Shown: positions 25,404 to 26,048 of the stretch, piece by piece
Layout of the letters: every line of letters starts with the position of its first letter
Numbering within the stretch: the first letter of the stretch is position 1
NCBI RefSeq assembly: GCF_053078305.1
Contig: NZ_CP166879.1
DNA: 64,000 nt
Direction: 5' to 3' (one strand)
The notes under the pieces: model-generated
What the model saw: only the letters and a program-made list of their open reading frames with translations
Databases searched by the model: none
Told to the model about the DNA's origin: nothing
Made by a program: the position numbers and the translations under genes

Positions 25404-26048
25404 ATGAGCAGAATTATCACCTCCACCGTGTATACACTGAATGAGCTATCCGCCACCGCACGGGAAAAAGCCCGCGACGGGTACCGTCAGCATCATGCTG
25501 ACAGCAACTGGTATGAAAACGTGTATGAAGACTTCAGGAAGGTCTGTGACATTTTCGGGATTGACCTCCGCCAGCGCGTTTTCCAGCTCAGCAACGGCAG
25601 GTTTATGGAAGAGCCGTGCATCTGGTTCAGCGGATTCTGCAGCCAGGGGGACGGAGCCTGTTTTGAAGGACGCTGGCACTGGCAGTCAGCAACAGCCAGG
25701 ATAATCCGGGAGTATGCCCCGCAGGACCGTGAGCTTCATCGTATCGCGGATGCCCTGCAGGCGGTGCAGAAGCGTAACTTCTGGCAACTGCAGGCTGAAA
25801 TCCACCACCGGGGACGCTACTGCCATCCGTACAGCATGGATATCACCGTCACCCGGAACAGTCCGACTGGTCAGATAATGACAACCGATGCGGAAGCCGC
25901 TGTCAGCGAAGCCCTGCGCGACCTGGCCTTCTGGCTGTACCGTCAACTGGAAAACGAGTACGACTGGCTGACCTCAGATGCCACTGTGGATGAGGCCCTT
26001 CTCATCAACGAATACACCTTTACCGAAGCCGGTCTGCGCGCCGGCTGA
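25404..26048 (+). CDS. Hypothetical 214-aa protein inserted between yeeT-like and cbeA
   Basis: ATG-initiated ORF tightly packed in the operon (19 bp after yeeT stop); no family recognised. Confidence 0.6.
   Translation: MSRIITSTVYTLNELSATAREKARDGYRQHHADSNWYENVYEDFRKVCDIFGIDLRQRVFQLSNGRFMEEPCIWFSGFCSQGDGACFEGRWHWQSATARIIREYAPQDRELHRIADALQAVQKRNFWQLQAEIHHRGRYCHPYSMDITVTRNSPTGQIMTTDAEAAVSEALRDLAFWLYRQLENEYDWLTSDATVDEALLINEYTFTEAGLRAG

Follow-up and report, generated by a model that had tools for sequence, protein, structure and literature searches.

The toxin-antitoxin (TA) pairs CbtA/CbeA, YkfI/YafW, and YpjF/YfjZ are functional in Escherichia coli K-12, and in the CP4-type islands of this strain the yeeT-type gene is followed directly by antitoxin and toxin genes. 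Here, we analyzed a stretch of 64,000 nucleotides (nt) (NCBI RefSeq assembly GCF_053078305.1, contig NZ_CP166879.1; referred to here as the window) in which one more gene, labeled X below, lies between a yeeT-type and a cbeA-type gene. X occupies positions 25404 to 26048 on the + strand and encodes a protein of 214 amino acids (aa). A preliminary description, made from the sequence without database searches, had presented it as an extra gene inserted into an otherwise conserved operon.

The context for the analysis comes from work on mobile elements. Plasmid leading regions are enriched in anti-defense, antirestriction, methylase, SSB, and TA genes, and one-third of their top-100 families are uncharacterized (Samuel et al. 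2024, PMC11541004). Along similar lines, Iyer et al. (2017, PMC5512222) describe RadC, ArdC, ParB, methylase-helicase dyads, and CbtA as a toolkit for conflict carried by conjugative elements and phages. Neither study tests the X family.

Deletion scars of X in E. coli islands

X proved to be an already catalogued and common component of the CP4-44-type islands of E. coli. Among 5,426 complete E. coli genomes, 1,942 (ca. 36%) contained it at ≥80% coverage; in 2,952 genomes, a total of 5,370 places had X or its 3′ scar (see below), compared with 12,919 places for yeeT. E. coli entries of RefSeq and UniProt (e.g., WP_000086771.1, WP_065304415.1, and A0A5T9QVY1) are 90 to 97% identical to the window protein, and RefSeq already gives such proteins a product name, “hypothetical protein” in some cases and “antitoxin of toxin-antitoxin stability system” in others. 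The gene is thus one of the standard island genes that the preliminary description had failed to recognize, and it cannot count as a discovery.

The survey of homologous islands also reversed the proposed polarity. K-12 indeed has no intact X at any of the three loci compared (CP4-44, CP4-57, and CP4-6). However, loci without X were found to carry remnants of its 5′ or 3′ end. The 73-bp spacer between yeeT and cbeA in K-12 CP4-44 (positions 1540 to 1612 of locus L003) keeps the ribosome-binding region of X and its first ca. 25 nt (ATGAGCAGAATTATCGCCACTACC, encoding MSRIIATT, eight codons). This scar corresponds to the start codon and ca. 8 codons at positions 25404 to 25428 (+) of the window. 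Immediately after it, the spacer jumps to sequence located 3′ of the X stop, so that the deletion relative to the window amounts to ca. 645 bp. In the second widespread allele lacking X, found for instance at loci L002 and L020, the last 113 nt of the gene (25936 to 26048, +) are joined directly to the yeeT stop, and the 49-nt spacer and cbeA follow unchanged. In the genomes most closely matching the window, the island next to cadC, the chromosomal site also occupied in the window, has this 113-nt 3′ scar.

The two scars are different, and therefore at least two independent deletions of a preexisting X must have taken place. As judged from these sequence remnants, the K-12-like state in the yeeT/cbeA lineage is a deletion derivative, and X is an original member of the operon; the arrangement that made the gene look extra is the derived one. 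In the yfjZ/yafW lineage, the K-12 CP4-57 and CP4-6 spacers (37 and 18 bp, respectively) retain no trace of X, and the demonstration of loss extends to the yeeT/cbeA lineage only. As markers, the scars make it simple to follow how these islands evolved.

Coding status and operon setting

The ATG-initiated open reading frame (ORF) of 214 codons was confirmed in both the ORF list and the raw sequence, and the two peptides singled out in the preliminary description, CIWFSGFCSQGDGACFEGRWHW and HHRGRYCHPY, are present in its translation. X is a real, intact protein-coding gene and no chance ORF, because it has thousands of homologs, a ratio of nonsynonymous to synonymous substitution rates (dN/dS) below 1, and a length of 214 aa that is kept in the Alphaproteobacteria. 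We obtained 2,862 homologs at an E value of ≤1e-3 in one protein database and 3,514 clusters in a library clustered at 50% identity (377 at E values of ≤1e-30). The alphaproteobacterial copies share 57 to 62% identity with the window protein; of the complete matches among them, nearly all have exactly 214 aa.

Within E. coli, five full copies were compared, all of 645 bp and without indels. Pairwise dN/dS was 0.23 to 0.38 in nine of the 10 pairs (dS of 0.11 to 0.24), with a value of 0.6 for the closest pair. The neighboring genes had lower ratios, i.e., 0.03 to 0.17 for yeeT, mostly 0.02 to 0.12 for radC (0.7 in one near-identical pair), and ca. 0.1 for cbeA. X is under purifying selection that is weaker than that acting on yeeT, radC, and cbeA. 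These values bear on the idea that the E. coli copies are functionless passengers decaying within a degenerate island, the reading frame being kept by the youth of the islands or by recombinational homogenization. The higher dN/dS in most pairs would fit such decay, as would the repeated loss by deletion and the many truncated fragments of X in databases. On the other hand, the five full copies are intact, with dN/dS clearly below 1 at dS values of up to 0.24, the window copy retains all the family-invariant residues (see below), and ca. 36% of complete genomes keep ≥80% of the gene at one locus or more. We consider a functionless passenger very improbable.

The flanking genes are those originally proposed, with 93% (yeeT region) and 91% (cbeA region) nucleotide identity to K-12 CP4-44. 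Only 18 nt separate the stop of the yeeT-type DUF987 gene (25164 to 25385, +) from the ATG of X, and 49 nt lie between the X stop and the GTG start of the cbeA/yeeU-type antitoxin gene (26098 to 26466, +). According to syntenic RefSeq and Pfam annotation, the complete order is DUF932, Antirestrict, RadC/JAB, DUF987, X, CbeA_antitoxin, CbtA_toxin, DUF5983, DUF957, and DUF4942. The putative transcription unit starts with the DUF932 gene (23251 to 24069, +) and continues with an antirestriction gene (PF03230, YfjX/LfgA-like; 24124 to 24609, +) and a RadC-like JAB-domain gene of the yeeS type (24610 to 25101, +), whose RefSeq homologs have 158 aa; the start equivalent to theirs (MQQLSF) is at 24625 of the window. 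Downstream of cbeA are the cbtA/yeeV-type toxin gene (26556 to 26933, +), a DUF5983 (yeeW-type) gene overlapping the cbtA stop (26930 to 27418, +), and a small DUF957-type ORF (27385 to 27627, +).

Two strong terminator-like hairpins on the + strand enclose this block. One, with a 13-bp stem (23173 to 23202), lies just 5′ of the DUF932 gene and is the likely 5′ boundary of the unit, and the other, with an 11-bp stem (27655 to 27681), follows the DUF957 ORF and probably marks its 3′ end. Between them, we found no promoter-like match on the + strand, and the only terminator-like match was one weak site (3 G-C pairs) inside cbtA. Since the boundary hairpins enclose no promoter-like and only one weak terminator-like site, it is plausible that X is cotranscribed with the whole block from DUF932 to DUF957. 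This tight operon position lends support to the cotranscription originally suggested for X. On the opposite strand, a 303-aa ORF (24178 to 25089, −) runs antisense to the antirestriction and RadC genes and is probably a spurious shadow ORF, as is known to arise opposite coding regions that are well conserved.

Database names, predicted structure, and conserved residues

Besides the RefSeq names, UniProt uses “Antitoxin of the YeeV-YeeU toxin-antitoxin system” for members of this family. The RefSeq and UniProt “antitoxin” entries and PHROG 5162 all belong to the same family as X, and nothing in the sequence sets X apart from them (phrog_5162 matched residues 2 to 210 with an E value of 3.3e-34, and its function is listed as unknown). 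In contrast to what the label says, X has no homology to any antitoxin family. No evidence of antitoxin activity behind the name “antitoxin of toxin-antitoxin stability system” was found in the literature, PHROG, or NCBIfam, and a literature search with the product names, neighbor genes, PHROG identifier, and WP accessions retrieved no paper on the family. The antitoxin names look like the result of naming by adjacency, and a widely propagated product name for which no support was found is unfit for counting TA systems.

The statement that X matches no recognizable family did hold for curated collections, now that profile searches have been run. There was no Pfam match even at E values of ≤10, either for X or for 121 family members, and no NCBIfam or PADLOC model matched X. 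Searching the PDB with X by sequence and by profile returned only noise (E values of >0.5). An AlphaFold2 model built from a 121-sequence alignment had a mean predicted local distance difference test (pLDDT) score of 96.2 and a predicted template modeling (pTM) score of 0.89. In this very confident model, two helices at the N terminus lead into a beta meander of six strands, after which come two more helices, a beta hairpin, a long helix, and a short C-terminal region. Template modeling scores against members of the family in AFDB were 0.96 to 0.98. Foldseek gave no significant match to the PDB (best E value, 0.24), while the AFDB50 matches listed (top 50 of 129 with E values of ≤0.001) all came from the X family itself. 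The product would be an acidic, soluble alpha/beta protein whose predicted fold has no counterpart in the PDB. The acidity is a family trait (median isoelectric point [pI] of 4.75 and median net charge of −16), the window copy having a pI of 5.4 and a charge of −8.

Attention had been drawn to several Cys and His residues in X. Across the 121 members, none of the cysteines (C72, C79, C86, and C138) is conserved, and of the histidines only H141 (95%) and H112 (78%) are kept. A metal-binding Cys/His protein was ruled out on account of this variation of the Cys residues. Invariance, or conservation in at least ca. 80% of the members, was seen at E14-L15, G52, S76-G77-F78, Q81-G82-D83-G84-A85, F87, E88, G89, D108, L111, Y139, H141, R172, W177, Y179, L182, N202, F206, and G210. 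Even in phage homologs with 28 to 35% identity, there is a core formed by L15, G52, G77-F78, Q81-G82-D83-G84-A85, Y139, H141, R172, W177, Y179, L182, F206, and G210, and the window copy has every family-invariant residue. Such conservation is suggestive of a defined site for binding or catalysis, although it does not identify a chemistry.

Plasmids, integrative elements, and phages carrying the family

X was mobile element borne in every context inspected. In species-representative genomes, 546 stretches encode a relative, and the neighborhood counts given below refer to the best 80, almost all of them from Alphaproteobacteria. Genes co-directional with X at these loci code for a large ParB-like protein (54 loci), a RadC-like protein (44), an ArdC-like zincin (38), and DUF2958 (35). 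In annotated conjugative plasmids, X was found amid SSB, DUF932, RadC, antirestriction, and strawberry-notch genes, with relaxases of the MOBP or MOBQ type, and in a Tistrella element, it lies ca. 2 kb 5′ of nikA-like and relaxase genes. The alphaproteobacterial homologs in plasmids and integrative and conjugative elements (ICEs) are located as leading-region genes are: they lie near a relaxase, and their direction is that of the surrounding SSB, antirestriction, methylase, and TA genes. In the window, the DUF932, antirestriction, and RadC genes and the TA pair are present around X, but there is no relaxase.

Two neighbors were particularly frequent in the species-level set. Immediately 5′ of X, a 139-aa ORF (MADYFTHFSCL...WGFQY...FGGGAHV) is present at 70 of the 80 loci (including L014, 6589 to 7008, and L012, 6592 to 7008), and at 61 of the 80 loci there is an overlap of exactly 8 nt between the stop of an upstream ORF and the start of X. 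In addition, a giant co-directional gene for a methylase/strawberry-notch helicase is found ca. 240 bp 3′ of X at 57 to 64 loci. The 139-aa family had no Pfam or NCBIfam match. It was also considered as a homolog of YeeT or CbeA and rejected, given that BLASTP produced no alignment to YeeT and the hhalign probability was ≤0.2% for both. The 139-aa protein may be an obligate partner of X in Alphaproteobacteria.

Such an arrangement raises the alternative that X is one half of a two-gene cassette for DNA or nucleotide processing, together with the 139-aa protein and/or the methylase-helicase, and that it processes transferred DNA rather than countering defense. The proximity of both neighbors argues for it, and the invariant polar residues Q81, D83, Y139, H141, and R172 resemble an active site. 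RadC and ParB, which are also frequent neighbors, have been proposed to be nucleic acid- or NTP-processing enzymes (PMC5512222). However, the 139-aa partner, itself devoid of a Pfam or NCBIfam identity, was not found beside X in the E. coli window or at the phage loci inspected, and both enterobacteria and hundreds of viral contigs keep X in its absence. Neither was a nuclease, NTPase, or transferase fold detected for X. We regard this cassette as unlikely.

Homologs of X are carried by 50 phages in GenBank. Among them are Caulobacter jumbo phages (in which the gene lies within the terminal repeats), Acinetobacter baumannii phages of ca. 100 kb, Pseudomonas phage Lana, E. coli phage Av-05, and Salmonella jumbo phages. 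At the three phage loci inspected, the homolog is located among small hypothetical genes, clusters that we read as early regions. In IMG/VR, relatives are encoded on at least 515 viral contigs. No conserved neighbor was found in 80 IMG/VR loci, the best cluster (function unknown) being present in 11 of them, and the idea of a conserved partner gene in phages was rejected on this basis.

Relationship to toxin-antitoxin systems

The preliminary description considered X an additional TA partner or a modulator of CbtA/CbeA. As the database names also imply, X could be a third component of this type IV TA system, for example a co-antitoxin or a sensor, or it could regulate CbeA. Local gene order gives this proposal its substance, starting with the position of X within the cbeA operon, 49 nt 5′ of cbeA. 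In Salmonella enterica subsp. diarizonae (locus L049, 7080 to 9600), the order is yeeT-like, a divergent second yeeU-like ORF, cbeA-like (7633 to 8004), X (8001 to 8645), cbtA-like (8706 to 9086), and DUF5983. X is there located between cbeA and cbtA, and the cbeA stop overlaps its start (ATGA), which amounts to translational coupling of the two genes. Roseobacter-group plasmids (L006, 8708 to 9807, and L014, 7704 to 8803) have a different TA pair, an MbcA/ParS-type antitoxin and a RES NAD+ phosphorylase toxin, directly 3′ of X. This X-ParS-RES order parallels the X-cbeA-cbtA order of E. coli, although the TA families are unrelated.

A more intimate association, an in-frame fusion of X to CbeA, was detected in 29 of the 5,426 complete E. 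coli genomes (L102, 3127 to 3174, in CP138416.1, plus 28 genomes). The fusion allele encodes 343 aa and derives from a TGA-to-TTA change and a 34-bp deletion in the spacer; PGAP annotates it as two overlapping genes. The isolates came from chicken, cattle, human, wild boar, and water. When this natural fusion was modeled with AlphaFold, the pTM was 0.61 and residues 217 to 275, which span the junction and the N-terminal portion of CbeA, were disordered (pLDDT of <50). There was no confident packing between the domains, and a packed X-CbeA interface received no support from what is a weak test.

Beyond these cases, the association fades. CbeA/CbtA was found near X at only one of the 80 species-level loci (that of Salmonella), and ParS/RES was likewise found at one. 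None of the plasmid, ICE, and phage neighborhoods inspected contained CbtA/CbeA, and no neighbor at all is conserved across the 80 viral loci; obligate pairing with a CbtA-family toxin was accordingly absent from these sets. In K-12, all three paralogous cbtA-type TA pairs exist without an intact X. CbeA/YeeU (PF06154) is the product of the adjacent operon gene, but it differs from X in size (122 versus 214 aa), and there is no sequence or profile similarity between them (the X profile against the CbeA alignment gave an hhalign probability of 0.2%, and there was no PF06154 match at E values of ≤10). The antitoxin names, which fit naming by adjacency, and the empty literature search add nothing in its favor. 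We find a third component of CbtA/CbeA quite improbable and, more generally, X is unlikely to be a TA component; its adjacency to TA genes can be explained by the richness of leading regions in such genes.

A possible role in element establishment

The picture that we favor is that of an original, cotranscribed member of a DUF932-antirestriction-RadC-DUF987-X-CbeA-CbtA module of CP4-44-type integrative islands, which K-12 and many other strains have lost through at least two independent deletions. The family is spread among conjugative plasmids and ICEs (especially of Alphaproteobacteria), enterobacterial islands, and many phages, and its members would act autonomously rather than as components of a TA system. 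That X acts alone is suggested by a family that is overwhelmingly found without CbtA/CbeA and without a fixed neighbor in phages. Autonomy is also the simplest reading because the length and the invariant core are kept while the neighbors change across ICEs, plasmids, islands, and virulent phages. The genomic context points to a factor for establishment or host takeover, made early after entry of the element, which would most likely neutralize a host defense or DNA-processing function. The acting surface might comprise the SGFxSQGDGA hairpin loop, Y139/H141, and R172/W177/Y179, forming a ligand- or protein-binding pocket or a catalytic site.

X has its genomic niche in common with leading-region and anti-defense genes (ArdA, ArdB/KlcA, ArdC, PsiB, SSB, and orphan methylases) and with early anti-defense genes of phages. 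Like them, it is small, acidic, stand-alone, and common to plasmids or ICEs and virulent phages. However, there is no homology or fold similarity to any of these proteins. Its neighbors RadC, ArdC, ParB, the methylase plus SNF2/strawberry-notch helicase, and CbtA are domains listed in the polyvalent-protein toolkit (PMC5512222), and X is almost always a solo protein of ca. 210 aa, with few longer forms. Since it has no Pfam match, X presumably falls outside the LPD domains of PMC5512222, which holds if those domains are in Pfam, as we assume.

One protein in AFDB, A0A4P9WST2 (969 aa), which is named “DUF4326 domain-containing protein” and assigned to the fungus Blyttiomyces helicus, includes a complete X domain with 59% identity. 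Bacterial contamination or a merged gene model is the probable explanation, although the protein could be a polyvalent-type fusion.

Several observations weigh against an autonomous anti-defense factor. The Salmonella order with its ATGA overlap, the ParS/RES pair of the Roseobacter plasmids, and the 29 genomes with X fused to CbeA all hint at a link of the gene with TA systems. The anti-defense or establishment role is based on guilt by association, and X has no PADLOC, fold, or sequence match to any known anti-defense protein. The leading-region location is putative, being deduced from neighbor genes and strand. No CP4-type island of E. coli is known to be self-transmissible, and a role early after entry may be vestigial there. 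Furthermore, the frequent loss of X and its dN/dS above that of its neighbors would also fit relaxed selection on X in E. coli, where the gene may be dispensable. On balance, we would give an even chance to the explanation as a whole, that is, an original island gene encoding an autonomous early or anti-defense factor that was lost in K-12.

A bolder version can be formulated, in which X is the founder of a new-fold family of early proteins of plasmids, ICEs, islands, and phages that disarm a widespread host defense or DNA surveillance system. The SGFxSQGDGA/Y-x-H/R pocket would do so by an undescribed enzymatic or sponge-like mechanism, and in enterobacterial islands the protein would possibly also be wired to CbeA/CbtA. 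We put this forward as a tentative and rather doubtful proposal. Whatever its mechanism, this very large and strongly conserved family is missing from Pfam, has a confident predicted fold without a PDB counterpart, and is sited like anti-defense genes of plasmids and phages, all of which makes it a reasonable candidate for anti-defense screens.

Other genes of the window

Upstream of the X-containing unit, an ORF of 840 aa (19786 to 22308, +), which starts with GTG and has a membrane region at its N terminus, is placed between a 1,065-aa ORF (16474 to 19671), which occupies the Ag43 position by synteny with L020, and an IrmA-like gene. It had no NCBIfam match, and its homologs in RefSeq are named “hypothetical protein” or “YeeR family protein.”

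Downstream, between the DUF4942 gene and a 512-aa ORF (30119 to 31657; cadC by synteny), the window has a second putative TA pair. The first gene (28650 to 28913, +) encodes a ParD-family antitoxin (TIGR02606; E value, 5e-28), and the second (28910 to 29236, +), which overlaps it by 4 nt, encodes a RelE/ParE-like toxin (TIGR02385; E value of 3e-5, under the curated cutoff). In L020, the closest reference island, an integrase fragment is found at the site of this pair.

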